Source of the DNA: an uncultured Planctomycetales bacterium
Lineage (GTDB): Bacteria; Omnitrophota; Gorgyraeia; Gygaellales; Profunditerraquicolaceae
DNA: 64,000 nt
Reading direction: 5' to 3'
Assembly: GCA_964603585.1 (NCBI GenBank)
Contig: CAZRVK010000005.1
Location: 90,027-154,026 of the forward strand
A program made the translations under genes and the position numbers. Below, piece by piece: positions 23,571-64,000 of the stretch; the stretch's first letter is position 1; each line of letters opens with the position of its first letter. The notes under the pieces were generated by a model that did not search any database, had not been told where the DNA came from, and saw only the letters and a list, made by a program, of their open reading frames with translations.

Positions 23571-23586
23571 TTACAAACTTAAAACT

Positions 23587-40275: not shown

Positions 40276-41799
40276 ATGCTGCCAAAAGGTTGGCTAAAGA
40301 AAAATTATTTATTAGTGGCCTTTATCCTGGCGCTGGTTTTCAGCGCATTCCTGCATTTTCGAGGCCTTGGCGGCGTAACCATCCTGGACGATGATGAATC
40401 CCGGGCCTTTGTCCTCCAAGGGAGCGGCCCGTTAATCTATTTTATCTGCCGTCCATTTTATCTTTTATCCGGGCGTGATCAAGCCAGCGCGTTCTATATC
40501 GCCGCACTCCTTGGTTTTATCAATATCATTTTGTTTTATCTTCTCTGCCGCAAGTTGTTCGATAAGGACCTTTCGAAACTGGCGGCCATAATCTATGCCT
40601 TGTATCCTGTGCGCATGAATTACGCGCGCACTTTATATCCGGCGGTATTCATAGAAAGCGCGTTCTTATTAGCCCTGCTTTTTCTATTTTCGGGCTTAAA
40701 CACGCGTAAATCATGGCAGGGATTTGTTTTTGGGGTATCTACTGTCGCTATTTTCTTCATGCATTATTCCGGTTACGCCCTGGTCATTGCTCTGATATTG
40801 GCAGTGATAGGATTAGGCATATGGCGTAAGTATTTTCGATTGAGCCGTGAGTTTATCCTGGGGCTGGTTGCTGGCTGTTTCATCCCTTTGGTGTTGATAA
40901 TCTGGTTTTGGCCGGGTAATGATTATTTACAGCAGGTTGTCCAATTTATGGGAAGGTATAAGAGTTATATGACGCATACCGGGACCCTTTTATATTTTAA
41001 CCGGGCGATCTTCCAGCAGATGTTTTCCTCCTGGCAGTATATCTTTATCAGCCTGGTTACTGCGGTTTCATGTTTATTTGTGTCAGTATATCCCCGGGCT
41101 AAAAGGAATAAAACCCTGGATTTGTTGCTGCTTATTTCATGTATTGCTTTGTTCATATTACAATTTGCGACTTTCTTAGGAAGGCATCCGCTTAACATAA
41201 GACACATAGTTTGGCTGGTTTCCCTCTACTCTGTGTGCATAGCACAGTGCATTTTCTTTTTATTATCCCGAAGGCGAGCCTTTGTGAAAATAACTGCAGG
41301 GGTGGTTCTTGTTTTATTCATTTGCGTTACGGCGCAGGAGAGTTATCAGATCACGGCTGAAACCTTTACTTTGACCCCGATCAAGGATTGGCTTAAGGGA
41401 AATAATATCCTCAAACGCCAGGTTATTACTTCATGGTGGATGCTTAACCGCGCTGGTGAGATAGACGGCGTATCACTTGTTCCAACCGCGTTCCAGGATA
41501 ACGGCGGCTCTTTTGAGTTTGGGATTCTCTGGCCGCTTGTATTTGAGGCATACCGCAAAGGCAGCTGTAAATATATCCTTACTTCGGGAATAAGCGGAAG
41601 GTTTTGCCTTGGAGAAGGGGATATAATGCTTAAATATGTTGATCCTGTTATGTCATGGCCGCATCCATATTCTAAATTCAAACGCCGGCCGTTTTATGAG
41701 CCAAAAGAGGTCAATATAAGTCTTTACCGCTTGGATGATGTTTTCTCGGAATGGAATATCAATACTATACAGTTTAACGCAAGAAGAGACCCGGGCTAA
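40276..41799 (+). CDS. GT-C fold membrane glycosyltransferase (PMT/ArnT, GT39/GT83-like), paralogue A
   Basis: Multi-TM N-domain with a first-loop acidic motif 'ILDDDESRAF' typical of GT-C enzymes. C-terminal soluble domain. Paralogous to 57486-59030. Confidence 0.6.
   Translation: MLPKGWLKKNYLLVAFILALVFSAFLHFRGLGGVTILDDDESRAFVLQGSGPLIYFICRPFYLLSGRDQASAFYIAALLGFINIILFYLLCRKLFDKDLSKLAAIIYALYPVRMNYARTLYPAVFIESAFLLALLFLFSGLNTRKSWQGFVFGVSTVAIFFMHYSGYALVIALILAVIGLGIWRKYFRLSREFILGLVAGCFIPLVLIIWFWPGNDYLQQVVQFMGRYKSYMTHTGTLLYFNRAIFQQMFSSWQYIFISLVTAVSCLFVSVYPRAKRNKTLDLLLLISCIALFILQFATFLGRHPLNIRHIVWLVSLYSVCIAQCIFFLLSRRRAFVKITAGVVLVLFICVTAQESYQITAETFTLTPIKDWLKGNNILKRQVITSWWMLNRAGEIDGVSLVPTAFQDNGGSFEFGILWPLVFEAYRKGSCKYILTSGISGRFCLGEGDIMLKYVDPVMSWPHPYSKFKRRPFYEPKEVNISLYRLDDVFSEWNINTIQFNARRDPG
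40474..40815. repeat. 342-bp tract 100% identical to 57684-58025 (copy 1), internal to GT-C paralogue A
   Basis: Base-by-base comparison: 342/342 identical. The flanking 5' 145 bp are about 92% identical and the 3' flank diverges to about 70%. Confidence 0.9.
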
Positions 41800-41807
41800 G
41801 CATATTA

Positions 41808-43048
41808 ATATGTATAAAGTAATAGAAAAGTGCAGGATTTGCGGAAACCCTGATTTGGTTGAGGTTGTTAATTTAGGCAAGATGATGTTAACGGGTGTTT
41901 TTCCCAGATCAAGATCAGAAGGCATCACTTTCGGCCCGGTTAGCCTGGTGAAGTGCTTTGGCTCTACGCAAGCCTGCGGCCTGCTCCAGTTAAAACAATC
42001 ATATGATCCTGCCCAGTTATACGGGACAAATTACGGGTATCGTTCGGGACTTAATCGCAGTATGGTGGAACATCTGCATAGAAGGGTTGACCATATTTTG
42101 GATATGGTCAAGATTAAAAAGGGTGACCTTGTCATCGATATCGGCAGTAATGACGGGACAATGCTTTCGGTTTATCCTCCAGGTGAGTTTGATCTTGTGG
42201 GGTTTGATCCTGTCGCTGTTAAGTTTAAAGGGTTTTATGCCCCACGGATCAACCTCGTTTTCGACTTCTTTTCTAAAGATATATTAGCCAGGGACTTTAA
42301 GGATAAAAAGGCAAAGATCATTACCTCGTTTTCCATGTTTTATGACTTGGAATGCCCGCTTTCTTTTATGCGAGGAATTTCTGAATCCTTAGATCAAGAA
42401 GGGATCTGGCTGTTTGAACAGAGTTATATGCCGCTGATGTTAAAGAAGATATCTTTTGATACGATCTGCCAGGAACATCTGGAATATTATGCCTTAAAAC
42501 AGGTAAAATGGATGGCGGATAAGGCCGGACTAAAGATCATTGGGGTTGAGTTCAATGATATTAACGGAGGAAGTTTTTCTGTAACCGCGGCCAAAAGCAC
42601 TTCTTCTTATCCCGAAGCCGCTGATCTCGCCTGGCTTGTGGAGCAGGAAAGGCTTGCAGGACTTGATCTTTTGGATACCTATCATGAGTTTTCCAAAGAT
42701 ATTGAGAAAGCCAAGAAGGATTTGTGTGATTTTATCAATAAGGTTAAAGCTGAAGGGAAAAAGATCTTTGGGCTTGGGGCGTCCACAAAGGGCAATGTTA
42801 TCCTGCAATATTGCGGGATCACGGATAAGGATATCCCTTTTATTGGCGAGGTCAATCCCGAGAAATTTGCGGCCTACACTCCTGGAACATTTATCCCGAT
42901 CATCCCGGAAGATGATTTATTAGCGATGTTCCCGGATTACCTTTTGGTTCTGCCGTGGCATTTTAAGGATTTTTTCCTTAAAAGCCCTAAATTCAAGAAC
43001 ACTAAACTGGTATTTCCTTTGCCTGAAATAGAGGTTGTAGAAGCGTAG
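41808..43048 (+). CDS. NDP-hexose C-methyltransferase-like protein (TylCIII/NovU family: N-terminal Zn-binding domain, SAM MTase, C-MTase C-domain)
   Basis: N-terminal 'CRICGNPDLVEVVNLG' zinc-ribbon domain (Methyltransf_13-like). Class I SAM fold 'VIDIGSNDGT'. C-terminal domain of about 150 aa. Confidence 0.65.
43007..43048. repeat. 42-bp 3' end of the C-methyltransferase gene, duplicated imperfectly (36/42) at 44502-44543
   Basis: 'ctggtatttcctttgcctgaaatagaggttgtagaagcgtag' versus 'ctggtgttttctttgcctgaaatcgaggttgtataagtatag'. Both end in TAG. The pair brackets the B12-rSAM gene exactly. Confidence 0.75.
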
Positions 43049-44500
43049 ATGGCGAACATACTGCTGATTTCAATAAACGATTTTAATGCGGAGGGATTGC
43101 GTATTCTGTCTGCAGTGCTGAAGAATAACCAGCATCAAGCTCATATCGGTTTTATTAAGAGCTACGATATAGGCAAGAAAGCCGAGGAATATGATTGGAC
43201 CGGGATAGATAATACAGGCCGGGAGTTCCGGTATGCCCGAGGCTCTGCGATCAGTGATACGGAAAAAACGATCCTTCTGTCTTTGATCCGGGATATCGGC
43301 CCAGGGATAATCGGTATTTCAGTGACCACGCCATTAAGAAAGACAGCCGCAGAAGTTTCTATGTTGATTAAAGGCAGCTTTAAGACACCGGTTATTTGGG
43401 GAGGAGTTGATCCGACGATCAATCCGCGTGAATGCCTGTCTTATTGTGATTTTGTTTGTATAGGAGAAGGCGAGAGGAGTATTGTTGATATCGCCTCATT
43501 ACTGGACCAAAATCGCGATATTCGTCAGGTAAATAATTTAGCGTACTTGGCCGGGAGCGAGTTGATTAAAAACCGTCTTTATCCTTTGATCCCTGATTTA
43601 GCCAGCCTTCCGTTTAAGGATATAGATAGTAACGGTAAGTTCCTGATCGAAGATAATTCATTGCTGAAGGATTTTAATATAGCAAGTTACACGAATAACC
43701 ATTCCTATCATATCATGAGCGCCAGGGGCTGTCCTTATCGATGCGCATATTGCTGTGAAGATTTCTATAAGGAATTATATGACAATCAGGTGTTCTTAAG
43801 AAGAAGGACTCCTGTTCACGTGGTGAACGAGTTGAAGAAAGCAAAAGAAATCCTGGGGTATAAACATGTTATATTCCAGGATGAGGTGTTCTCCTGTGAT
43901 TATGAATGGCTCCGGGAGTTCAGCGCTATGTATAAAAAACAGGTCAGCAGTGAATTCGCATGCAATATTTATCCAAATAAAGATATTGAAAAATATGTGA
44001 AGGTCCTGAAAGAGACGGGACTGATTTTTGCTTGTTTAGGGTTACAGTCAGGCAGCCAGGCAATAAACAGCAAGGTATTTAACCGGGTGTTTGACCGCCA
44101 GCTGTTCATAAAAACCGCGAATTTACTGCATTCTGCGGGGATAGGTTATTACGTTGATGTTATAACCTTCAATCCGTTTGAACAGGAAAAAGACCTGCAA
44201 TCGACTTTAAGTGTGCTCAAAGAACTGCCGAAACCGTTTAGTTTGTGCGTCAATAAATTATATGCCTGTAAAGGTACCCGGATACACGGATTGCTGCAGG
44301 GTTATAAGAGATCCCGGGGAGAAAAACCCCTCCGGGAAGGCGTTTTTATATATTATAGCTGCCTGTTCTGGCTGGCAGTGAATCACAGCAAGGCACTGGT
44401 TGGATTAATAGATAATATGCGGATATTTAAATATCTGGTGTCCTTACTGCATCGCTTCCGGAAAATAAGATCTAGGTGTCTGTCAATTCAAGGGCATTAA
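43049..44500 (+). CDS. B12-binding domain radical SAM protein (class B rSAM, putative C-methyltransferase)
   Basis: N-terminal cobalamin-binding Rossmann-like domain followed by the radical SAM 'CPYRCAYC' (CxxxCxxC) motif. The ATG abuts the preceding stop codon. Confidence 0.8.
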   Translation: MANILLISINDFNAEGLRILSAVLKNNQHQAHIGFIKSYDIGKKAEEYDWTGIDNTGREFRYARGSAISDTEKTILLSLIRDIGPGIIGISVTTPLRKTAAEVSMLIKGSFKTPVIWGGVDPTINPRECLSYCDFVCIGEGERSIVDIASLLDQNRDIRQVNNLAYLAGSELIKNRLYPLIPDLASLPFKDIDSNGKFLIEDNSLLKDFNIASYTNNHSYHIMSARGCPYRCAYCCEDFYKELYDNQVFLRRRTPVHVVNELKKAKEILGYKHVIFQDEVFSCDYEWLREFSAMYKKQVSSEFACNIYPNKDIEKYVKVLKETGLIFACLGLQSGSQAINSKVFNRVFDRQLFIKTANLLHSAGIGYYVDVITFNPFEQEKDLQSTLSVLKELPKPFSLCVNKLYACKGTRIHGLLQGYKRSRGEKPLREGVFIYYSCLFWLAVNHSKALVGLIDNMRIFKYLVSLLHRFRKIRSRCLSIQGH

Positions 44501-44501
44501 G

Positions 44502-44543
44502 CTGGTGTTTTCTTTGCCTGAAATCGAGGTTGTATAAGTATAG
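44502..44543. repeat. Relic copy of the C-methyltransferase 3' end (see 43007-43048)
   Basis: Direct sequence comparison. Lies in non-coding DNA after the rSAM stop. Confidence 0.75.
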
Positions 44544-44589
44544 GCGGATAAAATAATTCCGGGTTCGATCCATATATTTTTATATTAAT

Positions 44590-45657
44590 ATGATTTTCAA
44601 CTGGGGTTGTATTTTTCATTCATTGGTCCTGACAGTTTCTTTTGTGTTTTCTTTTATCCTGGCAAGAAGGAACAGGTCTTTTTGGGCCTTTCTTTTTAGC
44701 TTGGGTATTGGTTTATTGCTTTTTGAGCTGGCAATAGCATTAATGCTATATTTTCCTCTGTTTGCCAGGTTAGGGCCGCGGGGGTTCCTGCGGAATATAT
44801 ATATGAGTGGGTATCGAAATATAATCCAGCTGGAACCGGAGTTTGCCCGTTACGATCCATATCTCAAATATACCCTCAAACCGGGAGTTTTTCTGTTCCG
44901 CAACCCGGAATTTGCTAATGAGTTCAGGGTTAACAGCCTTGGGGTACGTGACGATGAATTCTCTTCAGAGTCTCCCGAAATAGTCGTAGTAGGGGATTCC
45001 TTGCCCATGGGCTGGGGAGTTGGCCAGGATCAAACATTCGCTCAAGTGCTCGAACAATCAAGCGGGTTAAAAGTCTTGAATGCCGCTGTTTCTTCTTACA
45101 GTACTGTAGAAGCTCTGCGCATAATCGATAGAATAGATATTTCAAAGGCAAAATACCTCATTATCGCTTATGGGCATGGCAAGTATTTCGAGAACCTTGG
45201 TTACTATAAGGCGCAGGACAAGTTCAAGGTCTTGAGCCGTAAAGAATACGAGCAGGCATCGGACAGTTATCACAAGCTGAAAGAATACTTGCCAATGAAA
45301 TATACAAGCCTTGCCTTCCTGGAATTAAGAAACAGATTGTTCCATATTTCGCCTCCTGTAATTTCTATACCTATGGAGACAGAGGCGAAAGTTTTTCTAA
45401 ACGCCGTTGTTAAGGCAAGCCATAAGGATTTAAGCGGGATTAAAATAATTGTTTTATGCGAGAAAGATTTTGTCGAACCATTAAAAAGAGCTGTTGCCGC
45501 ATTTAAAACGCCCGGGCATTTTATAAGGGGGGTGACAATTATTGGTCAGCCGGAAATAATAGGCGATCGTGCATATATCCTTGATGATCATCCGACAGCC
45601 GAGTGGCATAAAGCTGTTGCCGTTGAAATAGCCGGGATTTTGAGGGAAAATGGTTAG
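44590..45657 (+). CDS. Membrane-anchored SGNH/GDSL-fold hydrolase/acyltransferase-like protein (paralogue 1)
   Basis: Two N-terminal TM helices. Block I 'VVVGDSLPMGWG' and block V 'DDHPT'. Confidence 0.55.
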   Translation: MIFNWGCIFHSLVLTVSFVFSFILARRNRSFWAFLFSLGIGLLLFELAIALMLYFPLFARLGPRGFLRNIYMSGYRNIIQLEPEFARYDPYLKYTLKPGVFLFRNPEFANEFRVNSLGVRDDEFSSESPEIVVVGDSLPMGWGVGQDQTFAQVLEQSSGLKVLNAAVSSYSTVEALRIIDRIDISKAKYLIIAYGHGKYFENLGYYKAQDKFKVLSRKEYEQASDSYHKLKEYLPMKYTSLAFLELRNRLFHISPPVISIPMETEAKVFLNAVVKASHKDLSGIKIIVLCEKDFVEPLKRAVAAFKTPGHFIRGVTIIGQPEIIGDRAYILDDHPTAEWHKAVAVEIAGILRENG

Positions 45658-45676
45658 TAAGGGATAAAGATTTGGG

Positions 45677-45711
45677 GCGGCAGGCAATTTCCCCTGCCGC
45701 TTTTACTTCTT
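45677..45711. terminator. Rho-independent terminator between convergent genes (8-bp GC stem GCGGCAGG/CCTGCCGC, 8-nt loop, T-tract)
   Basis: The hairpin is followed by 'TTTTACTTCTT' on the + strand. It lies directly downstream of the stops of both 44590-45657 (+) and 45703-46899 (-). Confidence 0.6.
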
Positions 45712-46899
45712 ATATTCGGCCAGAAAAATATCCGCCATTAAACGATGGCCTTTTTCATTAAAATGCATGTCGTCTTTAATGAAATATTCACTAACGGCCG
45801 GTTGCGCGCTGGTTTCTTTATCGCCGTCTACGAAGTAGGGGAAAGAGTTGATAAAATCCACCTTGCGCTTTTTACACCATTGGCTCCAGTGTTTGGCATG
45901 GATCGAGTCCAGATCATGATGGATGACTTGTAGCGGCCACGGGTAAACCACCACCGTAAGTTTGATCTTATTCTTTTTTAGCAGATCATACAGTTTATCC
46001 ATATAAAACTGCATTTCACGGATCCCTTGCTGGCCATATTCCCTATATAGTTTATCGTCAATTGTCCATGCGCTTATGTTATAAATGTCAACATCTCTTT
46101 GCAGGGTAGTTTCTTCCTTTGGGGCAAAGTGGCTGTATAAATTACTTATAATCGTATATGATAGTATCGAATTATTTTTGAAACTGGCTTTAAACCTTCT
46201 CCACAGGGTCATATAGTATCCTTCGGTTTTATCAATTGTGCATGCCGGCACGTATCCTTGCGCATCAGACCAGACAACGTTGCCGCTTTCGTCCAAAGAA
46301 TAGTTTGTTGCTTCATTAGCCGCGTCGCTTATATCCAGGAAAACGGCTAACCGGTCGAATTTTAAACCGGCATCTTCGATAAGATACTTTATCTTTCTCC
46401 AGTAGATGATCGGCGAATATGAGCTTACCCCGGCATTGAGTACTTCGATGTTTTCTTTGGATAATGCTGTATCGATCAGCCCGGCAAATGTATGTTCATA
46501 ATTTATGCCTAATCCTTCCGTAAAAGAGTCTCCGATAAGGACAAGGCGAATGTTCTCCGGGATCAAAGGGATCTGTCTTGTTGATTTGTCCCGGAATCCC
46601 AGGGAATTGGTATAATAATCTGACCTGTTGCATCCCCAAATGACCCCGAGAACGGTTTTATTTTTGGCCAGGTCATGATGGTATAGTTTCGATTGCTCCC
46701 GGTAAGCTTTTTCCAGCCTTTTATACTCGATATTGTGACGTTCTTCTTGTCTTGCCGCCCAGGAATACCCGTGCATGAACCTGTAGATATTGGCGCTTAA
46801 GTAATCAAGGGTAAGAGCGGTTATTATAAGAAAACACAGGATTGTTTTCTTGGGATGGCGTTCGAATAGGGCGGAATTACTATTTTTCTTGTTTTCCAT
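45703..46899 (-). CDS. Membrane-anchored SGNH/GDSL-fold protein (paralogue 2)
   Basis: N-terminal TM. 'LVLIGDSFTEGLG' block I and 'DDMHFN' block V. Confidence 0.55.
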   Translation of the reverse strand: MENKKNSNSALFERHPKKTILCFLIITALTLDYLSANIYRFMHGYSWAARQEERHNIEYKRLEKAYREQSKLYHHDLAKNKTVLGVIWGCNRSDYYTNSLGFRDKSTRQIPLIPENIRLVLIGDSFTEGLGINYEHTFAGLIDTALSKENIEVLNAGVSSYSPIIYWRKIKYLIEDAGLKFDRLAVFLDISDAANEATNYSLDESGNVVWSDAQGYVPACTIDKTEGYYMTLWRRFKASFKNNSILSYTIISNLYSHFAPKEETTLQRDVDIYNISAWTIDDKLYREYGQQGIREMQFYMDKLYDLLKKNKIKLTVVVYPWPLQVIHHDLDSIHAKHWSQWCKKRKVDFINSFPYFVDGDKETSAQPAVSEYFIKDDMHFNEKGHRLMADIFLAEYKK

Positions 46900-47144: not shown

Positions 47145-47927
47145 ATGTTTTCAAAAACCGGCGGTTTCTTAAAGTATTGGCAGTTGGTGTTTGTGTTTTC
47201 GGTTACATTCACTAAAATCCGGTATAAACAAACCTATCTGCGTTTTGCCTGGACGATGATCCAGCCTGTTTTTTCCCTGTTTGTGTTTACCTTTATTTTC
47301 GCCAAAATGGCTAAATTTCCTTCTGAAGGAGTGGCGTATCCGGCGCTTATTATAGCGGCGATCATCCCTTGGGCATTTTTTGCTTCTTCGGTCTCTTCCG
47401 GGGTAACTATTCTTTCCGATAACTTCAGCCTGATAACGCGGATAAACTTCCCTAAATCCACTTTGGTCCTCGGTACTATTCTTTCTAATCTTTATGATTT
47501 ACTGATATCTTTGGTCATAATGGTGGCAGTGTTTAAGGCCTATGATGTGCATCTGGGGGTTTACGCCTTCCTTTTTATCCCCATACTGATAATCCAGATA
47601 GTGTTTACCGCAGGAGTATGTTTAATAATTTCCGTAATTAACCTGTATTTAAAGGATATAAAGCATGCCATGGCGCTGATACTTCAAATATTAATGTTGG
47701 TCTCCCCGATAGGGTATTCTACCGGGATAATCCCGGAGGACTTAAGGGGGATTTATTTTCTTAACCCTATGGCGGGTTTAATCGAGAGTTACCGCTATGC
47801 ACTTTTGCATAACAGCCCTTTGGTTTGGGAGGATTTCTTTATGGCAGTGTTTATTTCCGGATTGACTTTATTGACCGGATATATAGTGTTTAAGAAAAAT
47901 GAGCCTATCCTTGCGGATATAGTTTGA
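47145..47927 (+). CDS. ABC-2 type polysaccharide export permease (Wzm/TagG-like)
   Basis: 6-TM ABC-2 permease pattern. 260 aa. Adjacent to the ATPase. Confidence 0.8.
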   Translation: MFSKTGGFLKYWQLVFVFSVTFTKIRYKQTYLRFAWTMIQPVFSLFVFTFIFAKMAKFPSEGVAYPALIIAAIIPWAFFASSVSSGVTILSDNFSLITRINFPKSTLVLGTILSNLYDLLISLVIMVAVFKAYDVHLGVYAFLFIPILIIQIVFTAGVCLIISVINLYLKDIKHAMALILQILMLVSPIGYSTGIIPEDLRGIYFLNPMAGLIESYRYALLHNSPLVWEDFFMAVFISGLTLLTGYIVFKKNEPILADIV

Positions 47928-47928
47928 T

Positions 47929-48636
47929 ATGATAAATACCGTCATTGAGTTCAAGAATGCTTCAAAGAGGTATCATTTACGGGAAAAGCTTTTTTCATCC
48001 CGGGATTACTTATGGGCTTTACGGGATATTTCTTTTACGGTCGCCAAAGGCGAATCCGTAGGACTGATCGGAGCAAACGGCGCCGGAAAGACTACGGTCA
48101 TGAGGCTGGTATCTTCTATTACCAGGCCTACAGAGGGAGAGGTGTCGGTTGCCGGTTTAGTAGTGCCGTTAATATCGGTTGAGGGAGCGGTTGATCTTAC
48201 CTTAACCTGCCGGGAGAATATTTATCTTATTTGTGCTTTATTCGGCCTTAATATGGCAGATATAAGAAAAGAAACGCCAGAGATCATCGAATTCGCCGGC
48301 CTTCGTGGTTTTGTCGATACGCAGCTTAAAAGGCTTTCGCGGGGGATGATCACACGCCTTTCGTTTTCGATATCCGTCCATGTGCCTGCGGATATCATGC
48401 TTATCGATGAAGTGCTGACTTTGGGAGATAGGGAATTCCAGGATAAATGTTTTACCAAGATCAATGAATATAAAAGATCGGGGAAAACCATAATATTCGT
48501 TTCGCATTCCATGGATGATCTAAGGAGAATCTGCGATAGGATAATCTGGTTTGATAAAGGAAGAATATTAAATGATGGCCCTAAGGACACTATTATAGAT
48601 GAATATTCCGCGGCCAAAGAAGATCCTCTTAGTTAG
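47929..48636 (+). CDS. ABC transporter ATP-binding protein (Wzt/TagH-like, short form without a carbohydrate-binding C-domain)
   Basis: Walker A 'GANGAGKTT', signature 'LSRGM', Walker B 'IMLIDEV'. Confidence 0.85.
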   Translation: MINTVIEFKNASKRYHLREKLFSSRDYLWALRDISFTVAKGESVGLIGANGAGKTTVMRLVSSITRPTEGEVSVAGLVVPLISVEGAVDLTLTCRENIYLICALFGLNMADIRKETPEIIEFAGLRGFVDTQLKRLSRGMITRLSFSISVHVPADIMLIDEVLTLGDREFQDKCFTKINEYKRSGKTIIFVSHSMDDLRRICDRIIWFDKGRILNDGPKDTIIDEYSAAKEDPLS

Positions 48637-51989: not shown

Positions 51990-52000
51990 ACGGTTAGGAT

Positions 52001-52933: not shown

Positions 52934-52942
52934 CCTTATAAA

Positions 52943-55013: not shown

Positions 55014-55045
55014 TATAGGATTTTTACGGATCAAAAGGGTTTTAT

Positions 55046-56143
55046 ATGAACATCGGAATAGATGCCCGTTATATATCTGACAGGCGCACCGGACTGGGCC
55101 GGTATGCGTATGAGCTTTGCCGTAATCTCGATGCGCTTTTACCACAGGCGAAGTTCTTTCTTTACAGCAGCCGCCCGATCGAGATGCCGTTATGGTCTGG
55201 CCGCTGGATAAAACGGATTGATTCCGGTATTCCGCGCTTGTTTGCTCGCCAGCTTAATTTATGGCTGAAGACACGTTGTCATTGTCTCTGTAAAAATGAT
55301 CCTCTGGATATTTTTTGGGCCACAGCTACTCTTCTTCCGCATCTTCCCAGGAGCGTTAAAACCATATCCACCGTGCATGACCTGTGTTTTGCCGTCTCCC
55401 CGCAGAGTATGCAGATCAATTCCTTATTGATGCAGAAGTTGTTTTTTAAGAGCGATGTATTAAAAGCCGATCATCTGGTAGCGGTATCTTCAGGGACCGC
55501 CAAGCGCCTTTATGAATATTGCGGCAGGAATGTTTCTTTGATCATGCCTCCTTCAGCTTCGGAGCAATTTCGTGTTTATCCCCAGGAAGAAGTAGAAAAG
55601 GCACGGAGGCTTTATCATCTGGATTTTCCCTATATCCTTTCTGTGGCGACATGGGAGCCGCGGAAGAATATTGCTTTGTTAATGGAAACATTCATTGCAA
55701 TGAAGAATGAGGGGTTATTACCCGGATACAAATTAGTATTGATAGGCCAAAAGGGATGGAGATACCGCAGGATTCGCTCGATCTTGGATAAGCACTCCCA
55801 GGATATCGTTTGTTTAGGGTATGTAGAAGACAAATATCTTGCGCATATTTATCAAGGGGCAGGACTTTTTGTATTTCCTTCCATATACGAAGGATTTGGT
55901 CTGCCGGTTTTAGAGGCAAGGCGTGTAGGTACGGTGGTTGTGGCAAGCGACACCCCGGAACTAAGGGAAGCTGGCGGTAGTAGTACGCATTACGTATTTC
56001 CGGATAAGCAGGGGATACGCCAGGGGATCGTTCTTGCATTATCCGGCGATTTAAGCAAGAAGCCTTGTAGTGATTACGTGTATTCTTGGCAGGCCGGAGC
56101 AAAGGCACTCGCTCAACTTTTTTCTGAAACGGTTTCCAGGTAA
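55046..56143 (+). CDS. GT-B glycosyltransferase (GT4)
   Basis: 'FPSIYEGFGLPVLEA' motif. Confidence 0.8.
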   Translation: MNIGIDARYISDRRTGLGRYAYELCRNLDALLPQAKFFLYSSRPIEMPLWSGRWIKRIDSGIPRLFARQLNLWLKTRCHCLCKNDPLDIFWATATLLPHLPRSVKTISTVHDLCFAVSPQSMQINSLLMQKLFFKSDVLKADHLVAVSSGTAKRLYEYCGRNVSLIMPPSASEQFRVYPQEEVEKARRLYHLDFPYILSVATWEPRKNIALLMETFIAMKNEGLLPGYKLVLIGQKGWRYRRIRSILDKHSQDIVCLGYVEDKYLAHIYQGAGLFVFPSIYEGFGLPVLEARRVGTVVVASDTPELREAGGSSTHYVFPDKQGIRQGIVLALSGDLSKKPCSDYVYSWQAGAKALAQLFSETVSR

Positions 56144-57252
56144 AGTTGGTTTAAATCCCGGGTGATTATATCCCAAGAGTAATTTTTCAGCAAATCCCGG
56201 GGATATGAGGGGATCTGGTGTGCGGTTTCGATCGCTTCAGCGAATTGGTTTAATTCTGCGGTTTTTACCATGGGTATTAGATCGGGATATCCACGCATAC
56301 CGAATGGGGTTGAGACCACCTTTAAGTTAAAGGCCAGGTATTCCAGTATTTTAAATGATGTGCCTCCTCCAAAGGTAACAGGGTTTAGGCCAACCGGCGA
56401 AAGCGCGGCATATTCTGCAAAACCATCGATACGGTCGTCAATAAAAACATTCTTCATGCGGCAGGAATGAAACCTTTTGCCGCAACCTCCTTTGATTACA
56501 ATTGCCCATTCATCTTTTAGCTGTTGAGCCAGGTGATGGATGATCCAATCTGCTGCCGCGCGGTTATGCGGGACGTTACTTCCGCAAAAGACCGCGATTT
56601 TCTTGTAATTTTGCAGTCCGGGGCTGGTTTTTGCCAGTGTCTTTATGTATTCTCCTGGTTTTGGCTCCAGGTCTATTCCGTTTTGTGCGATATATATTTT
56701 TGAGCCGGATACTCCATATAGCTCGATGAACCTGGATTTGTCAGCCGCGGAACAGGCCAGGACTTTATCCGCCGCATGGACAAGCTTTTTTTCTAAACGG
56801 TATATTCTGCGGGAAACCAGGTCTTTTATTCCGGCCATCCGGCATTCGGAGCGCGAGTAATCGAACTCTACATTTTGTGCATTATATATTATAGTGCTTT
56901 CTTTAGGCAAACAATCCGTCAGGTCAGCGAAGCTGGCGTGTTCAAACTGGTATATATCCGAATGATCAAGATGCCTGTGGATAAGAAAACGGTATCCCGG
57001 ATGAAAGGAGGCGAGGAACTGGTATGGGAATGGCCGGTCAGTAAACAAAAATGAATGGATAAAAGGGTAATATATATTATAAAAACGCGGGTTATTCCCC
57101 GTGTTTTCTTTTTGCCTTATGTATCCGCATGGCGCAATGATATCGACGGCGAATCCTTGTGCCGCTAACCCGGAACAAATTTTGAATATCCGGATCTTTC
57201 CTCCGTAAGAAAGGGGTAAGACAGGGTAAGGCGAGATGCAGGTGATTTTCAT
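56113..57252 (-). CDS. GT-B glycosyltransferase (GT4-like)
   Basis: 379 aa, with a two-Rossmann GT-B layout. Convergent with, and overlapping by 31 bp, the preceding gene. Confidence 0.7.
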   Translation of the reverse strand: MKITCISPYPVLPLSYGGKIRIFKICSGLAAQGFAVDIIAPCGYIRQKENTGNNPRFYNIYYPFIHSFLFTDRPFPYQFLASFHPGYRFLIHRHLDHSDIYQFEHASFADLTDCLPKESTIIYNAQNVEFDYSRSECRMAGIKDLVSRRIYRLEKKLVHAADKVLACSAADKSRFIELYGVSGSKIYIAQNGIDLEPKPGEYIKTLAKTSPGLQNYKKIAVFCGSNVPHNRAAADWIIHHLAQQLKDEWAIVIKGGCGKRFHSCRMKNVFIDDRIDGFAEYAALSPVGLNPVTFGGGTSFKILEYLAFNLKVVSTPFGMRGYPDLIPMVKTAELNQFAEAIETAHQIPSYPRDLLKNYSWDIITRDLNQLYLETVSEKS

Positions 57253-57328: not shown

Positions 57329-57372
57329 CCATACATGTATTGGCGGTATTTTCAAAACCAGGAACAATTGCC

Positions 57373-57400: not shown

Positions 57401-57485
57401 CAGACTCATAGTGGATATCCTCGTCATACTCCGGGCTTGAAAAATTAAAATCAATCAGTAAAACAACGATAAATAATTTATCCGT

Positions 57486-59030: not shown

Positions 59031-59057
59031 CCGGATTGAGGTTTAAGGAGGTAAAAT

Positions 59058-60785
59058 TTGTCAGTTATCCTGGGAATTGTAAATAAACGCGTTCATTCGG
59101 GTTTTGACGAGGATACGCTCTCTGGATTCCGCGATTGCCTTTCCTTGGGTGGACAGCGTAAGGTCTACAGCCTTGATTGCGGCAAGGCTATGTTCTATTG
59201 TGCGGATCATCCGGATGTAAATCAAAATTTAATAGCCCGCGATGAACGCAATGCACAGGTAACTGTATTTGGAGGAAGGATCCTTGAATACCGGGGCGCC
59301 GATAAAGCGGCATTTTCCTGTAAGCCTTGGGTGGACCCGGCGCTTTTCTGCCTGGAAGGTTTTTCTCAATCTGGGGTATCATTCTTAAAGGGCCTCAATG
59401 GTACCTTTGGAGTGGCATTATGGGATAAAAGAAAAGAACGGTTGATTTTGGCAGGCGATACATTTGGGCTTTATCCGTTGTTTTATTATGATTCCAATGA
59501 AATATTCATTTTTTGTTCAGAATATCAGCCGATACTAAAATACAAGGAGCTTAAACCTGTCCTTGATCCGCAGGCAGTTGCAAAGTATTTTATCTTTGGT
59601 GCAGTTATGGGAGAGAGGACCCTGATTAAAGGCGTCTTAAGGCTTCCACCGGCATCGGCCTTAACACTGAAGGATGGTTTAGCCGGGATAGATGCTTATG
59701 AACATGTGGATATCCATATCCAGAGGGACAGGCCAAAGGGATATTTCATTGAGCGTTTCGAAGACAGGCTAAGGCATGTGGTAACATCCGGGTTAAGTCG
59801 GTTTGACATAGACCACTGTGATTTATCCGGAGGCTTGGATACCCGGTTCATTCTTGGCCTAATCCCGGTTGGGGCGGCCCAGGGCTTGAAGTTTATTACG
59901 TATATGAACGCGTATCTTGATGAAAAAACGGACAGAAACGTCATTTGCGCAAAACGCCTGTCCCGGCAGTTTAAATTGCGCCACAATGTGATTGCCGGCA
60001 CCAAACCGGTTGATTTTTCTCCGTATTTTTTTGAGCGAATAAGGTATGTAGAAACAAATAACCCTGCGCTTTCTGGTAGGGGCGGAGGGGAATTCTTAGG
60101 AGGGGAGTTCATTAAAATCTATAACCAGTTCTTCAGGCCGAGTAATGATCCCGGGCAGTTAAGGCGCCAGTTACTCGGGTATTTTTCAAAACGGTTTGTA
60201 AATAGCCTCGGATGCCTGGAAGACTTACTGGTCCGCCGCCTGAACAGCAAAGAGGCTTTAGCTCGAGAAAACACGGTTTTTTTATCCTCGGTTGAACTGA
60301 TCTTCCGGTCGTTCCTTTCGTCGCTTTATTACGGAAGTTTCCGCGGCACGGCGTTTACCTGCCCTTGGGAATGCTTTTTAGGCACTGAATTTTCCCCGTT
60401 TACCGATAAGGAGTTCTTAAAGCTCATAGCTATAACCCCTCCGGAATATCTTATGGATTACGGCTTGTATATCGCTATTCTGAAAAGACACCACCGCAAT
60501 TTATTGAAACTGCCGTATTTCTCCTGCGCATGCCGGCATCCCGGGATCAGGCATTTTGGGCCTGGGAGGCATACTTTTATGCGCAAAGAGAACCGGCATA
60601 TTAAGTTTATCAATACCTGCATTAAGGATCCGGATGCCTGGGTTAAGCAAAATCTTATCTGCCGGCAAAAGGCAAAGTCGCATCTTAGGTATTACCATTC
60701 GGTGCGGGACCTCTTTGATCAAAAGATGTATGAACTGGCAAAGGTCACCGATTTCCAGGCATGGCTTAACTACATAAAAAACTGA
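59058..60785 (+). CDS. Asparagine synthetase B-like amidotransferase (Ntn-type N-domain with Ser in place of the nucleophilic Cys; PP-loop ATP pyrophosphatase domain)
   Basis: TTG start with 'AGGAGG' RBS 8 nt upstream. N-terminus 'MSVILGIV' versus the canonical 'MCGI'. 'GTFGVALWDKRKERLILAGDTFGLYPLFY' is AsnB-like. The PP-loop reads 'DLSGGLDTR'. Confidence 0.75.
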   Translation: MSVILGIVNKRVHSGFDEDTLSGFRDCLSLGGQRKVYSLDCGKAMFYCADHPDVNQNLIARDERNAQVTVFGGRILEYRGADKAAFSCKPWVDPALFCLEGFSQSGVSFLKGLNGTFGVALWDKRKERLILAGDTFGLYPLFYYDSNEIFIFCSEYQPILKYKELKPVLDPQAVAKYFIFGAVMGERTLIKGVLRLPPASALTLKDGLAGIDAYEHVDIHIQRDRPKGYFIERFEDRLRHVVTSGLSRFDIDHCDLSGGLDTRFILGLIPVGAAQGLKFITYMNAYLDEKTDRNVICAKRLSRQFKLRHNVIAGTKPVDFSPYFFERIRYVETNNPALSGRGGGEFLGGEFIKIYNQFFRPSNDPGQLRRQLLGYFSKRFVNSLGCLEDLLVRRLNSKEALARENTVFLSSVELIFRSFLSSLYYGSFRGTAFTCPWECFLGTEFSPFTDKEFLKLIAITPPEYLMDYGLYIAILKRHHRNLLKLPYFSCACRHPGIRHFGPGRHTFMRKENRHIKFINTCIKDPDAWVKQNLICRQKAKSHLRYYHSVRDLFDQKMYELAKVTDFQAWLNYIKN

Positions 60786-62282
60786 ATGAAAGAAGAACTT
60801 TCCCTAAAACCCGGTATTGTGCTGGTCCATTCCCCGTATATGTATATCCCACAAACTTACGGAAATGGAGGTGGGTTTATCCGTCCTCCTTTGGGGGTGG
60901 CTTCTCTTTCTGCATACCTTAAGCAAAAAGGTTTTGCTCCGTTTGTTTATGACTTAAACATTAAATTATTCCTTGGCGTTTCATCCGGGCATAGGTATCT
61001 CTGGGATAAGGAGTCCAAGCACCTTTGGATGAGGCGGGAAAAGTTTTTTAAACAAGTGCTCCCTAAAATACGCGCCGAGGTAGAAACTACGGCGGAAAAT
61101 ATTATCGCGCATGCTCCTGACCTGGTTTGTTTTTCAGTTTATAAGACCTCTATTGTTTTTTCCTTGTATTTAGCCGGTTTACTTAAAGAAAAAAGAAAAG
61201 ATATTTCCGTAATTTTGGGTGGCCCTGAATGCAAGGCATCTAATGCCGCAGAGATTATCGATAGTTCCCCGGTAGATGCAGTTGTGGTCGCAGAAGGCGA
61301 GGAAACCCTTAATGAAATAGTGCATAATTTCCGAAATAAGCGCATGTTAATTCCCTGCAGAGGTGGTTTTTTCCGTTCTGAAGGTAAGATCATCTTTGGC
61401 GGGCACAGGCCGTTTATTTCGGAGATCGATAAATTGCCGCTCCCGGATTTTTCCGGCATAATCGATGATTATTACAGGCTTAATAAGGACAATCTGGCCT
61501 TACCGATCTTGTGGCTGCGCGGATGTACTAACAAATGCACATTTTGTTCCAGTCCGTTACTGTGGGGTCATGCCCGTTCAAAGTCTCCGCAGGTGATTTT
61601 CCGGGAATTCAAAGAACAGAGCACTAAATATGGAATTTCACGTTTCATTAAGAATGATTCCATTTTGTCTGGTTCCGCTCAACACATAGATGAGGTATGC
61701 GACCTTTTAATAAAAAATGGCCTGGCTGTTCAATGGGGAGGGTCATCCCGGATCGATGATTTCTTAAGGCCTGAACTACTGACCAAAATGCGTAAGGCCG
61801 GATGTATGCATTTGAGTTATGGTATAGAAAGCGGCTCGCAAAAGATCATCGATGCCATGAATAAGAATTTCTCACTCTCCTTTGCCCGGGAGGTTTTGTC
61901 TGCGACTAAGCGCGCCGGGATCCGGGTTTGCGTTTATATCATGTATGGATACCCGGGGGAATCACTGGTTGATTTTTTTAAGACCATCGCGTTTCTTATT
62001 AAGAACAGGCGGTATATCGATTCCCTTGATTGTTCCCGGTTCGGTATTTCTTACTCCCTGTTAGCGGTTCATCCCGCCAAATACGGGATATCCCTGGATA
62101 AAAACGGAAGGTACCGTCCCCGGTATTATTTTATTTTTGATATTCTCACCAAAGCAAAAGGCCTTTTCCTGGCCCTGTATTGTTTTATTGCTTATAGGGA
62201 AGTCTTGGATAATACTGTCGGAAGCATTTATAAGCCTTTACGGTTCATCCGGAGCAGATTCTTCAGGAAAAATATACCTTGA
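60786..62282 (+). CDS. B12-binding domain radical SAM protein (second class B rSAM)
   Basis: N-terminal B12-binding-like domain followed by 'GCTNKCTFCSS' (CxxxCxxC). The start abuts the AsnB-like stop. Confidence 0.8.
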   Translation: MKEELSLKPGIVLVHSPYMYIPQTYGNGGGFIRPPLGVASLSAYLKQKGFAPFVYDLNIKLFLGVSSGHRYLWDKESKHLWMRREKFFKQVLPKIRAEVETTAENIIAHAPDLVCFSVYKTSIVFSLYLAGLLKEKRKDISVILGGPECKASNAAEIIDSSPVDAVVVAEGEETLNEIVHNFRNKRMLIPCRGGFFRSEGKIIFGGHRPFISEIDKLPLPDFSGIIDDYYRLNKDNLALPILWLRGCTNKCTFCSSPLLWGHARSKSPQVIFREFKEQSTKYGISRFIKNDSILSGSAQHIDEVCDLLIKNGLAVQWGGSSRIDDFLRPELLTKMRKAGCMHLSYGIESGSQKIIDAMNKNFSLSFAREVLSATKRAGIRVCVYIMYGYPGESLVDFFKTIAFLIKNRRYIDSLDCSRFGISYSLLAVHPAKYGISLDKNGRYRPRYYFIFDILTKAKGLFLALYCFIAYREVLDNTVGSIYKPLRFIRSRFFRKNIP

Positions 62283-62294
62283 GTCCAAACTTCG

Positions 62295-63533
62295 TCATGG
62301 CGAAGGGACAATTCTTTTGCTTGTCAGGTAATCCAGCAATTCCTCGGCGTAGAATTGGTGTAATATACGGCTGGGGTGGCCGTTGGCAGGGTTGGCCCAT
62401 AATTCCTTCCTGATTTGTTGCGGAGTATAACTGCCGAAACGCGCGTTCGCTTTCGGGTACAGGTCAAGGTAATCAATCCCATTTTCATCAAGCACTTTAA
62501 AAAGCATCCCGTAGTAATATCCAAGGTCCTTTAGTTTGCCCTGATAAGATACCCGGTTGTATCTTTCCATGGTCGGCAGGGTAATAAAGAGGCAGGGTAT
62601 TTTTATTTTTTGTAAATGGTCCTTTAATTGCGCGACCACTTTTTTATACTCCTGCCAATTCCCGCCGGAATAAAGATCCCTCCAATACATTTCGTAGGTA
62701 ATAGACTCGATCCCGCGGTTAATAAGATAAGCAGTGTTCTTGAATAAATTGTTCTTTATGCGCAGGTAGCGGCGGGGTTTTGCCAGCCCTCGTACCTCGG
62801 GGTCATTCTTTACGAACCCGATGATAAGATAATCGATCTGGAATTTGCTGCCTTCGCCAGTTAAGAAATCGAGTTCATCCTGGGTGCTCCATCCGTGCCG
62901 ACCCCAGGTCAATACTTCGATCTTATTCCCGTATAATTTTTCTAATTGTGCCGCCAGGATGTGGCTGAAGGAATCCTTTCTTTCTAATCCGGAACCCCAG
63001 ACATAGGAATCGCCCAGGATTGCTATCCTAAAGGCCGTTTGCCGGGATTTCTTATACTCACGGTGTTTGTCATCAAAACCCCAGCGGTTGCTGTTTTTTA
63101 TCTTTTCGGCATTGATTGCTTTGTCATCGGCCAGGTATTTTACAGAACCAAGGATTTTCTGGTTATTTTGCGTGCTTAAATAATATTCGGTCAAGGTTAA
63201 GGTGGATAATAAGAGAGACAGGTTTATTAGGAAGATGGTAATGCGGCTTTTTTTCTTGAATATATAATCCAAAAAGAAGGTTGCGGTTATAATCGAGATA
63301 ATGGCGAGCCAGTTTTTTGCGGCCTTAAATGCCAGAGCTTGGCAATAGCTGGATAGTAAAACAAAAGATGGGTTCCGGCAGAAAGCATACACCGCATTCA
63401 GCAGTTTATGTAAATACCCGATTATTGATAAACTGTCAAAACTGTAGCAGAACACGGATATTACCACCAGCATTATCGATGCAAACTTAAGTTGGCTGAA
63501 AAACCTATATTTTTTCTTTTCGGATGATTTCAT
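62295..63533 (-). CDS. Polytopic N-terminal membrane domain fused to an SGNH/GDSL-fold domain (paralogue 3)
   Basis: 3-4 N-terminal TM helices. 'IAILGDSYVWGSGLE' block I and 'ANGHPS' block V. Confidence 0.5.
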   Translation of the reverse strand: MKSSEKKKYRFFSQLKFASIMLVVISVFCYSFDSLSIIGYLHKLLNAVYAFCRNPSFVLLSSYCQALAFKAAKNWLAIISIITATFFLDYIFKKKSRITIFLINLSLLLSTLTLTEYYLSTQNNQKILGSVKYLADDKAINAEKIKNSNRWGFDDKHREYKKSRQTAFRIAILGDSYVWGSGLERKDSFSHILAAQLEKLYGNKIEVLTWGRHGWSTQDELDFLTGEGSKFQIDYLIIGFVKNDPEVRGLAKPRRYLRIKNNLFKNTAYLINRGIESITYEMYWRDLYSGGNWQEYKKVVAQLKDHLQKIKIPCLFITLPTMERYNRVSYQGKLKDLGYYYGMLFKVLDENGIDYLDLYPKANARFGSYTPQQIRKELWANPANGHPSRILHQFYAEELLDYLTSKRIVPSP

Positions 63534-64000
63534 CGTATATTTGGGCCCGTTTATCCCAGGTGTGTTTATTCAAGATGAGCCGGATAGCGTGTTTTTTATC
63601 CCAGGCCTTTATGTTGGCGGCTGTTTCGATATCCTGGGCCATGGCCTTTGGTTTTGAGTTTGGGCTGATAAATCCCAATTTAGCATCGATAAGGAGTTTT
63701 TCGTTGGGGAACCCTTTTTCCATGACTGTAGGAAGCCCTGCCCGGAGATAGTAGTATAATTTGGTGCTTTCGTTATTGTTTACTTTTTTAACCGGAGAAA
63801 GCACGATCCCTATATCGGCATGAAAAATGTATTGCCAGCTTTCCGGGTAAGGGATCGCCCCCAGGTGGGTTATGGCTTTAGGGTCCAGCTTTGTTATATC
63901 TCCCCGGCCGCAGACAAAAAGGCGGATATTCTTTTTTGCCAGTAGATTGCCGAGCGTGTTAAGTTTTTCTACCAGGATTGCGTTTGCCTCCGGCTGGGTA
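63505..64000 (-). CDS. GT-B glycosyltransferase, C-terminal part (gene continues beyond the window end)
   Basis: The minus-strand frame is open from 64000 down to the stop at 63505. It encodes '...NIRLFVCGRGD...YLRAGLPTVMEKGFPNEKLL...', a GT1/GT4 C-domain. Confidence 0.5.
   Translation of the reverse strand, partial: TQPEANAILVEKLNTLGNLLAKKNIRLFVCGRGDITKLDPKAITHLGAIPYPESWQYIFHADIGIVLSPVKKVNNNESTKLYYYLRAGLPTVMEKGFPNEKLLIDAKLGFISPNSKPKAMAQDIETAANIKAWDKKHAIRLILNKHTWDKRAQIYDEIIRKEKI

Follow-up and report, generated by a model that had tools for sequence, protein, structure and literature searches.

Polymers that are exported by an ATP-binding cassette (ABC) transporter and then decorated outside the cytoplasm by a GT-C glycosyltransferase are already known from the group A carbohydrate pathway (GacD/E with GacI/J/K/L; 10.1101/180810) and from the O antigens of Klebsiella and Citrobacter (PMC11127046). 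Here we describe a locus of this architecture in a 64,000-nucleotide stretch of contig CAZRVK010000005.1, to which we refer as the window, and in which the locus runs from position 40276 to at least 64000. The host belongs to Candidatus Omnitrophota, and the locus is most likely a lineage-specific one for an envelope polysaccharide. A conserved ABC-transporter module stands at its center, and on either side lies a module that combines a GT-C of a rare family with a class-B (B12-binding) radical S-adenosylmethionine (SAM) enzyme. The gene content was taken from a listing of open reading frames (ORFs) together with Pfam scans, and the NCBIfam matches given below all fall under their curated cut-offs. 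The original prediction for this stretch, made from its letters without database searches, did not recognize the combination as a described pathway. Indeed, neither NCBIfam nor the full-text literature yielded a characterized pathway for the whole gene set, although the architecture itself is established. As far as the literature showed, what is new is the family of the flanking GT-Cs, its recurrent pairing with B12-type radical SAM enzymes, and the duplicated-module layout.

The likeness to the group A carbohydrate pathway extends over several steps: cytoplasmic assembly by GT2 and GT4 enzymes, Wzm/Wzt-type export, and decoration outside the cytoplasm by a GT-C (GacL in that pathway) from a polyprenyl-phosphate-sugar donor, which for the locus is proposed by analogy (10.1101/180810). 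In both cases the initiating transferase may be encoded apart. The similarity is at the superfamily level only, however. The window shows no GacI-type synthase, GacJ/DUF2304 protein or flippase, the locus has three GT-Cs rather than one, and it adds B12-radical SAM, TylCIII-like, AsnB-like and SGNH genes; its host is a diderm member of the Omnitrophota and not a Gram-positive coccus. A GT-C is also what the locus shares with the three-component systems of O antigens (Gtr, Klebsiella galactosylation and Citrobacter youngae GT136), in which this enzyme adds side-chain sugars after polymerization, including to ABC-transporter-dependent O polysaccharides, and which drive antigenic diversity (PMC11127046). 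Two of the three features of those systems, the lipid-phosphate-sugar synthase and the flippase, are not seen within the window, and the GT-Cs of the locus are of the PMT_2 type, not GtrC or GT136. Radical SAM enzymes go unmentioned in that account (PMC11127046).

Parts of the locus recall other pathways. In the Arn pathway (ArnB, ArnC, ArnE/F, ArnT), ArnT is a PMT_2-family GT-C, and it appears among the fold matches of the modeled GT-Cs; the flanking GT-C family elsewhere has DegT (ArnB-like) and ArnC/PgfS-like GT2 neighbors. However, the Arn partner genes are absent from the window, and no significant sequence match to ArnT was obtained. To our knowledge, neither a radical SAM enzyme nor a C-methyltransferase or SGNH protein takes part in the Arn pathway in its usual description. 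In the hopanoid side-chain pathway (HpnI, HpnK, HpnJ), the B12-domain radical SAM enzyme HpnJ remodels a lipid-attached sugar, and here the parallel goes no further than the kind of chemistry. HpnJ matches both radical SAM enzymes of the locus at 59–84 bits against a cut-off of 578, and there are no hopanoid genes here. Finally, the virenose branch of Coxiella burnetii contains a TylCIII-type 3-C-methyltransferase (CBU_0691) that is assigned, in an in silico model, to a lipopolysaccharide (LPS) O-antigen sugar and not to an antibiotic sugar (PMC3539893). The 4,6-dehydratase step of that model is not seen in the window, and the Coxiella paper describes no GT-C or B12-radical SAM genes.

The central module (47145–57252) begins with adjacent forward-strand genes for a Wzm-type ABC-2 permease (47145..47927, 260 residues, Pfam ABC2_membrane) and a Wzt/TagH-type ABC ATPase (47929..48636, 235 residues, Pfam ABC_tran). 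Eight glycosyltransferase genes follow, an arrangement that is the hallmark of ABC-transporter-dependent pathways. The best NCBIfam matches of the permease are galactan Wzm/RfbD and KpsM, and those of the ATPase are TagH (188 bits) and galactan Wzt (137 bits). At 235 residues, and with no C-terminal carbohydrate-binding domain, this Wzt argues that a terminal cap probably does not gate export. One of the eight genes encodes a GT-C (GT-C3, below). The other forward-strand genes encode GT4a (48599..49819, 406 residues, Glycos_transf_1 at E 4e-34), GT2a (51228..51989, 253 residues, soluble, Glycos_transf_2), the rhamnosyltransferase-like GT2b (52001..52933, 310 residues, Glyco_tranf_2_3), GT4b (52943..54082, 379 residues, Glycos_transf_1), GT2c (54006..55013, 335 residues from the first ATG, with the ATG at 54075 as the likely start; Glycos_transf_2 at E 7e-25) and GT4c (55046..56143, 365 residues, Glycos_transf_1), and GT4d (56113..57252, 379 residues, Glyco_transf_4) lies on the reverse strand. 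The best PDB match of GT2a is GmaR, with none to GtrB, ArnC or DPMS. GT2b has a single C-terminal transmembrane segment and matches NCBIfam TIGR01556 at E 1e-15. At the far end of the locus, an open frame on the reverse strand runs off the window (63505..64000, stop codon at 63505–63507); it has a weak NCBIfam 'sugar transferase' match (E 0.0014) and is probably the 3' part of a GT-B glycosyltransferase gene. The nine or more GT-A and GT-B enzymes of the original prediction are therefore reduced to seven complete ones and this partial GT-B-like ORF, whereas the Wzm/Wzt exporter stands, as do the TylCIII-like C-methyltransferase and the two B12-dependent radical SAM enzymes, on the basis of Pfam and PDB matches.

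The order and orientation of these genes are conserved in a 98.9-kb metagenomic contig (L085), which carries Wzm, Wzt, GT4, GT-C, GT2, GT2, GT2 and a reverse-strand GT4. Identities between the two sets of proteins range from 40 to 59% (Wzm 51%, Wzt 59%, GT4a 42%, GT-C3 42% at the matching position, GT2a 49%, GT2b 40%, GT2c 51% and GT4d, in the same orientation, 44%); GT4b has no counterpart there. From this synteny, 47145–57252 emerges as a conserved module for ABC-transporter-dependent synthesis in which a single GT-C is embedded. As a separate observation, L085 encodes a 705-residue fusion of GT2, radical SAM and SPASM domains (11404–13521) between its orthologues of GT-C3 and GT2a.

The embedded GT-C3 (49816..51231, forward strand, 471 residues) has no Pfam match of its own, and a search against PDB sequences was also empty. 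PF13231 is found in homologues that are 43% identical to it. Its distant relatives are fused to TPR domains and bear the automatic annotation 'protein O-mannosyl-transferase'; GT-C3 itself is TPR-less. Its AlphaFold (AF2) model has a pLDDT of 87.6 and a pTM of 0.90, and when the model is compared with the PDB by Foldseek, the best 36 consecutive matches are all GT-C enzymes, with STT3, PglB, AglB, ArnT, Pmt4, DPY19, Emb and AftA among them. Unrelated membrane proteins appear only lower down (E >0.3, probability <0.3). The residue D31, which the models place in the first loop as an acidic residue, is invariant in the family. With PMT_2 matches for the two flanking proteins and these Foldseek matches for the 471-residue protein, the presence of three GT-Cs, as had been predicted, is confirmed.

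The flanking proteins, GT-C1 (40276..41799, 507 residues, PMT_2 at E 8e-12, about nine transmembrane segments) and GT-C2 (57486..59030, 514 residues, PMT_2), are both encoded on the forward strand and are paralogues with 68% identity overall. The start of GT-C1 at the ATG at 40276 is backed by the P0002 alignment and by the sequence, and a hydropathy scan places 9–10 transmembrane segments in the GT-Cs of the locus. For the AF2 model of GT-C2 (pLDDT 68.7), the best 33 consecutive Foldseek matches in the PDB are all GT-C-superfamily folds, ArnT, STT3 and Pmt4 among them, and unrelated membrane proteins are found only lower (E >0.15, probability <0.3). The models of GT-C2 and GT-C3 superpose on PDB GT-C structures with TM-scores of 0.27–0.54. 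In 38 members of the flanking family, D40/E41 are invariant and fall in the first loop of the topology derived from the models. A profile of the family found nothing among PDB sequences. The paralogues are not evenly similar along their length. The 5' ∼480 nt (∼40336–40815 and ∼57546–58025, ∼160 codons) are 92–100% identical and include 300 perfectly identical bases, beyond which identity drops abruptly to 33–80%. The N-terminal half, taken as the catalytic and donor-side part and containing the invariant D-E loop motif, looks like the product of a recent gene conversion, and a collapse of the assembly is less likely.

This family is rare. An exhaustive hidden Markov model search of 1.84 billion representatives returned 62 members at E<1e-30 and 78 at E<1e-10, and a word-indexed protein search found just four, also with the 38-sequence profile. 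The profile had no relative in the 185,579 species-representative genomes of GTDB, and a scan of metagenome contigs yielded five loci, of which two had flanks that could be used. NCBI assigns one member to Candidatus Omnitrophota.

The two flanks of the central module share a layout, with GT-C1, a C-methyltransferase, radical SAM 1 and two SGNH proteins on the left, and GT-C2, an AsnB-like protein, radical SAM 2 and one SGNH protein on the right. The association of the GT-C with a class-B radical SAM enzyme is seen in other genomes as well. Nine contexts had flanks that could be read, and in six of these (the window, twice; L003/L004; L091; L097; L098) such an enzyme is encoded no more than two genes from the GT-C. 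In unrelated loci (1.23 Mb in total), the radical SAM profile matches only 3 of 1243 ORFs (∼0.25%), which puts adjacency by chance at ∼1% per context. The co-occurrence of GT-C and B12-radical SAM genes, which the original prediction had proposed to check, is real where the flanking GT-C family is concerned. We found no description in the full-text literature of a GT-C with a radical SAM enzyme, or of a B12-radical SAM enzyme with an O antigen.

The individual contexts differ in what surrounds the pair. In L003/L004 the GT-C gene is followed by the radical SAM gene, and the two overlap. L091 (490–4162) holds a compact stand-alone operon of B12-radical SAM, a small SAM-methyltransferase and GT-C, in which the start codons overlap the preceding stop codons, among the housekeeping genes pnp, uppP and ftsK and with no other glycan gene nearby. 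L097 (8001–15423) has GT-C, B12-radical SAM, a heptosyltransferase-like GT9, B12-radical SAM, radical SAM and a second GT-C paralogue, preceded by an ArnC/PgfS-like GT2, GNAT and DegT, and L098 has GT9, radical SAM, radical SAM-SPASM, B12-radical SAM and GT-C. The nearest relative of radical SAM 1 is the enzyme 'a' of L097 (124 bits), that of the L003 enzyme is 'c' of L097, and radical SAM 2 is nearest to 'b' of L097 (157 bits), L091 (125 bits) and L098 (115 bits), a group with 32–35% mutual identity. Outside the window, family members also adjoin full-length ArnC/PgfS-like GT2 genes (227 and 180 bits), DegT aminotransferases and GNAT, or a PpgS-like GT2 beside a DUF2304 gene. A set of synthase-type GT2, DUF2304, DegT and GNAT comprises the classic genes for a polyprenyl-phosphate aminosugar donor (10.1101/180810).

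The locus is missing from relatives. The best matches of the TrpC encoded upstream are in many Candidatus Omnitrophota metagenome-assembled genomes (60–68% identity), and these keep the gene order aroA-like, trpG, trpD, trpC, trpF. In ∼23 of 29 Omnitrophota-like loci trpB-trpA come directly after trpF, with trpB no more than 1.5 kb away, and in the window the trpF stop codon is 5 nt from the start of GT-C1. Comparison of the locus proteins with 80 related loci gave no match beyond weak ones for Wzt, GT4a and GT4c (20–34% identity), and the locus has a lower GC content (43.5%) than the sequence upstream of it (45.8%). The absence from relatives, the junction at trpF and the drop in GC together argue for an accessory, lineage-specific insertion. 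LPS and capsule glycosyltransferase genes are among the hypervariable regions of Omnitrophota genomes (preprint, 10.64898/2026.06.07.730766). The genes of the locus overlap or abut, which suggests operons, and the right-hand end of the locus is outside the window, as it extends past 64000.

The tailoring enzyme of the left module is a TylCIII-like nucleoside diphosphate (NDP)-sugar 3-C-methyltransferase (41807..43048, forward strand). Pfam Methyltransf_13, 23 and 14 are all above their cut-offs, and full-length PDB matches are seen to KijD1, the D-mycarose 3-C-methyltransferase 4rv9 and TcaB9 (5t64, 4rv9, 3ndi) at E 1e-43 to 1e-39. The protein has the zinc-binding N-terminal domain, the SAM-methyltransferase domain and the C-terminal C-methyltransferase domain. 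The class-B enzymes, radical SAM 1 (43049..44500, 483 residues, CPYRCAYC) and radical SAM 2 (60786..62282, 498 residues, CTNKCTFC), are both on the forward strand, and each has the B12-binding and Radical_SAM domains above the Pfam cut-offs along with the CxxxCxxC motif. Radical SAM 1 has sub-threshold NCBIfam matches only, and the best matches of radical SAM 2 are to C-methyltransferases of ribosomally synthesized and post-translationally modified peptides (RiPPs), ApyD and TIGR03975 (E 1e-41; 140 bits versus a cut-off of 282). An 85-nt direct repeat (D3, 44485..44569, forward strand) is 75% identical to 42990–43074 and is a relic copy of the 3' end of the C-methyltransferase gene; it encodes FKGIKLVFSLPEIEVV followed by a stop, where the C-terminus of the C-methyltransferase is FKNTKLVFPLPEIEVVEA followed by a stop. 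The stop codon of radical SAM 1 falls inside this relic, suggesting that the gene arrived by recombination within the 3' end of the C-methyltransferase gene. The relic is further evidence for the shuffling of cassettes.

In the right module the corresponding position is taken by an AsnB-superfamily adenylating enzyme (59058..60785, forward strand, 575 residues, Pfam GATase_7) with the PP-loop SGGLDT. It begins MSVILGI where AsnB begins MCSIFGV, and the Ser at position 2 implies that the Cys nucleophile of the glutaminase is absent. An earlier start is not possible because GT-C2 ends 27 nt upstream. The NCBIfam models for AsnB, lasso cyclase and XrtA amidotransferase match at E ∼1e-22 to 1e-24, and the match is confined to the PP-loop region (TIGR01536 over residues 99–312). 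In the PDB, the hydroxyamidotransferase 7ylz matches at E 1e-10, with LSGGLDTR aligned to LSGGLDSS. The AsnB-like amidotransferase that had been predicted therefore retains its PP-loop, but the catalytic Cys is absent and AsnB-type models are matched below their cut-offs; the missing nucleophile also weakens the prediction of an amidated product.

Three membrane-tethered SGNH-fold proteins had been predicted as well, and two of these are just above the Pfam cut-off: SGNH 2 (45703..46899, reverse strand, 398 residues, one transmembrane segment; Lipase_GDSL_2 at 33.7 bits versus 32.9) and SGNH 3 (62295..63533, reverse strand, 412 residues, 3–4 N-terminal transmembrane segments; 34.3 bits versus 32.9). 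SGNH 1 (44590..45657, forward strand, 355 residues, two N-terminal transmembrane segments) is a weak call at E 0.01, with a match to the NCBIfam LA_2490 family at E 9e-11 and 34% identity over 90 residues to SGNH 2. Even so, the GDS motif is present in all three, with 1–4 N-terminal transmembrane segments in each. SGNH 2 is found with 100% identity on the independent Logan contig L001. The best NCBIfam relatives of the three are two uncharacterized GDSL esterase families of Leptospira, LA_2490 and LA_2486.

Taken together, we consider it probable, though far from secure, that the locus makes an LPS O-polysaccharide or a capsule-like polymer, with a core ABC module and two tailoring/GT-C modules that decorate the glycan or the LPS core. 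The cytoplasmic GT2 and GT4 enzymes would build the polymer on a carrier, presumably polyprenyl diphosphate, with the initiating enzyme encoded elsewhere, and Wzm/Wzt would export it. On the outer side of the inner membrane, GT-C3 would then attach a side-chain sugar. Each flanking module would prepare an unusual sugar in the cytoplasm in a route that includes a radical SAM step, probably a C-methylation; methyl transfer to an unactivated carbon is the usual chemistry of class B radical SAM enzymes. In the left module, the TylCIII-like NDP-4-keto-6-deoxyhexose 3-C-methyltransferase would give rise to a branched-chain sugar. In the right one, the Cys-less AsnB-like enzyme may convert a sugar carboxylate to an amide, with ammonia or an amine and not glutamine as the nitrogen source. 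The modified sugars would be loaded onto polyprenyl phosphate, flipped, and moved by the GT-C of the module to the exported glycan or the LPS core, and the SGNH proteins may add or remove O-acyl groups outside the cytoplasm. In this way the three blocks of genes may contribute to a single product.

Several observations weigh against this assignment. Those on pathway genes hold for the visible part of the locus (40276–64000), since it continues beyond. No polyprenyl-phosphate-sugar synthase (GtrB/ArnC/GacI/PpgS/DPMS) is recognizable there; the best matches of GT2a–c are to other enzymes, and the one trace of a synthase among the three is PpgS at E 0.005 for GT2c. No small flippase of the GtrA, MATE, ArnE/F or GacK type is present among all ORFs of at least 100 residues in 40276–64000, and the window has neither the NDP-sugar nucleotidyltransferase, 4,6-dehydratase and ketoreductase that would feed the C-methyltransferase nor an initiating transferase (WecA/WbaP-type) or ligase. 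The genes that supply the NDP-4-keto-6-deoxyhexose may be located past 64000 or in another part of the genome. By Pfam, the visible locus has no MBOAT or AT3 (Acyl_transf_3) partner for the SGNH proteins, and the O-acylated product of the original prediction is accordingly overstated. The radical SAM partners are just 22–35% identical to each other overall, and all of their functional NCBIfam scores are at most half the cut-off, with no equivalog-level match, so that methylation is to be read only as the commonest class-B chemistry. Three of the nine contexts (L090, L099 and L094/L095) have no adjacent class-B radical SAM gene; L094/L095 has non-B12 radical SAM genes 4–5 genes from the GT-C, and L090 and L099 show none. 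The model of GT-C2 is of moderate confidence. Lastly, the flanking family occurs elsewhere without Wzm/Wzt, and its acceptor may therefore not be an ABC-exported polymer. The original prediction had noted that an initiating phosphoglycosyl transferase, a flippase and a Wzy polymerase are absent. None of these, and no Wzx flippase, is found in 40276–64000, a negative that holds for the visible part of a locus that runs off the window. For the initiating enzyme, such an absence is normal in ABC-dependent loci, for which WecA is usually encoded elsewhere (PMC11127046).

The occurrence of the family without Wzm/Wzt leads to an alternative in which the flanking modules are ArnT-like modifiers of LPS lipid A or core that share a hypervariable surface-glycan region with an O-polysaccharide or capsule module by mere coincidence, and that place a radical-SAM-modified (amino)sugar on lipid A or the inner core. 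We regard this as unlikely, though it accounts for a good deal: the heptosyltransferase-like GT9 genes that adjoin the family in L097 and L098, a 3-deoxy-d-manno-octulosonic acid (Kdo) transferase gene ∼7 kb downstream in L003, the ArnC/PgfS-like GT2, DegT and GNAT neighbors, the ArnT fold matches, and the stand-alone operon of radical SAM, methyltransferase and GT-C amid housekeeping genes in L091. In the window, however, both copies tightly bracket the Wzm/Wzt module, none of the GT9, Kdo, lipid A, ArnC-like or DegT genes is in view, and a TylCIII-like enzyme suggests that an NDP-deoxyhexose is used, as is typical for O-chains. An acceptor of another kind would be protein, if the GT-Cs were PMT/TMTC-type O-glycosyltransferases that move lipid-linked sugars onto secreted or giant surface proteins. 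The assignment to PMT_2 by Pfam invites this idea, as do the 'protein O-mannosyl-transferase' labels on the TPR-fused distant relatives of GT-C3, the presence of Pmt4 and STT3 among the fold matches, and a family member in L090 downstream of an ORF of >2830 residues. But PMT_2 also spans ArnT-type lipid and glycan transferases, the labels are automatic annotations, GT-C3 has no TPR and holds a conserved position inside a Wzm/Wzt-glycosyltransferase operon in two genomes, and no candidate acceptor protein is encoded in the locus. We therefore judge transfer to protein improbable, and the possible protein O-linkage of the original prediction is not supported in our assessment.

The right module could also be viewed apart from the glycan, with the AsnB-like enzyme and radical SAM 2 as a RiPP maturation pair. 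The ApyD and TIGR03975 matches of radical SAM 2 would agree with this, and so would the AsnB-like protein, which fits the lasso-peptide cyclase model about as well as AsnB and, like lasso cyclases, has no Cys nucleophile. Nonetheless, these scores are about half the curated cut-offs or less; a leader peptidase, a RiPP recognition element and a plausible precursor ORF are missing nearby, with nothing convincing as a precursor in the intergenic regions next to the right module and the core module. Considering further that the nearest GT-C-linked relatives of radical SAM 2 are in glycan or LPS contexts, and that both genes abut GT-C2 in one apparent operon, we find the pair very improbable as a peptide maturase. 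More improbable still is that the arrangement is partly an artefact, in which the 300-nt identical repeat caused contigs of a metagenome bin to be mis-joined. The contig is indeed metagenome-derived, the perfectly identical tract lies in genes 17.2 kb apart, and independent confirmation is limited to 44.9–51 kb (Logan contigs L001 and L002). Yet both GT-C genes are full-length and in frame, with 3' halves that are divergent but homologous, order and orientation are coherent on both sides, and the core is syntenic with L085. That L097 shows a two-paralogue layout too argues further against a mis-assembly.

Beyond the polysaccharide assignment, a broader proposal can be made tentatively, and we hold it to be possible but rather doubtful: that the family of the flanking GT-Cs and the class-B radical SAM enzymes with which it recurrently pairs constitute an undescribed extracytoplasmic glycosylation system. 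In it, a sugar, possibly already linked to polyprenyl phosphate, would be remodeled by cobalamin-dependent radical chemistry (a C-methylation or a rearrangement) and then passed by the GT-C to LPS or to a glycan of the surface. The partners fall into at least two or three orthologous groups, all present in L097. Under this proposal the window would combine a conventional ABC-exported polymer with two diverged copies of the system, and the recent gene conversion on the donor side of the GT-Cs would suggest a shared donor scaffold with differing acceptors or sugars. Whichever acceptor is used, the GT-C family and the B12-radical SAM enzyme make a concrete, testable gene pairing. A functional pairing would mean that cobalamin-dependent radical chemistry, familiar from antibiotic and lipid pathways, also serves to decorate envelope glycans, and that a fourth component has to be added to the three-component scheme; otherwise, the locus would be one more hypervariable O-antigen or capsule island. 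Omnitrophota are uncultivated and have very small cells, and many are thought to be attached to, or to prey on, other microbes, which probably makes their surface glycans important in contact with hosts and in escape from phages. For the cell surface studied here, the gene content predicts sugars with a C-methyl branch and possibly sugars modified by radical SAM enzymes.

The remaining observations concern the surroundings of the locus and its relatives. A minority of Omnitrophota relatives carry other genes after trpF, namely CdhD/RACo acetyl-CoA synthase genes, pnp-ftsK, or type II secretion system E/F genes (L025 11482–19153; L013 11764–16056; L020 11863–14789). This differing cargo argues that the junction 3' of trpF is variable in the phylum. 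The notion that the trpF/trpB junction is a dedicated hotspot for glycan islands was dropped, as the cargo in other Omnitrophota is unrelated. In L090 (83–8575), the ORF of >2830 residues is cut by the end of the locus and lies ∼1.3 kb upstream of the family GT-C, with an alpha/beta hydrolase gene and a 183-residue ORF in between; Omnitrophota are known for giant proteins.

No RNA family, riboswitches included, was found when the whole window was scanned with Rfam, and a promoter scan gave 37 sites where 43 were expected from shuffled sequence, no better than chance. A terminator-like hairpin with an 11-bp stem (45674..45703, forward strand) lies between the convergent genes of SGNH 1 and SGNH 2 and is a match to the consensus only. 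In the divergent intergenic region between GT4d and GT-C2 (57279–57393), the peptides encoded by two short ORFs, one on each strand, resemble each other (..GRSRPPH.. and ..GGRDRPHT..), which hints at an imperfect inverted repeat, though the repeat finder reported none there. Upstream of the locus, the first 40 kb of the window hold housekeeping and Wood-Ljungdahl genes. The Wood-Ljungdahl cluster (19228–26675) comprises formate-tetrahydrofolate ligase, an FTCD_C-domain protein, FolD, MTHFR, a pyridine-nucleotide-disulphide oxidoreductase and the acetyl-CoA synthase beta subunit, and it is followed by a TPR protein and polA.

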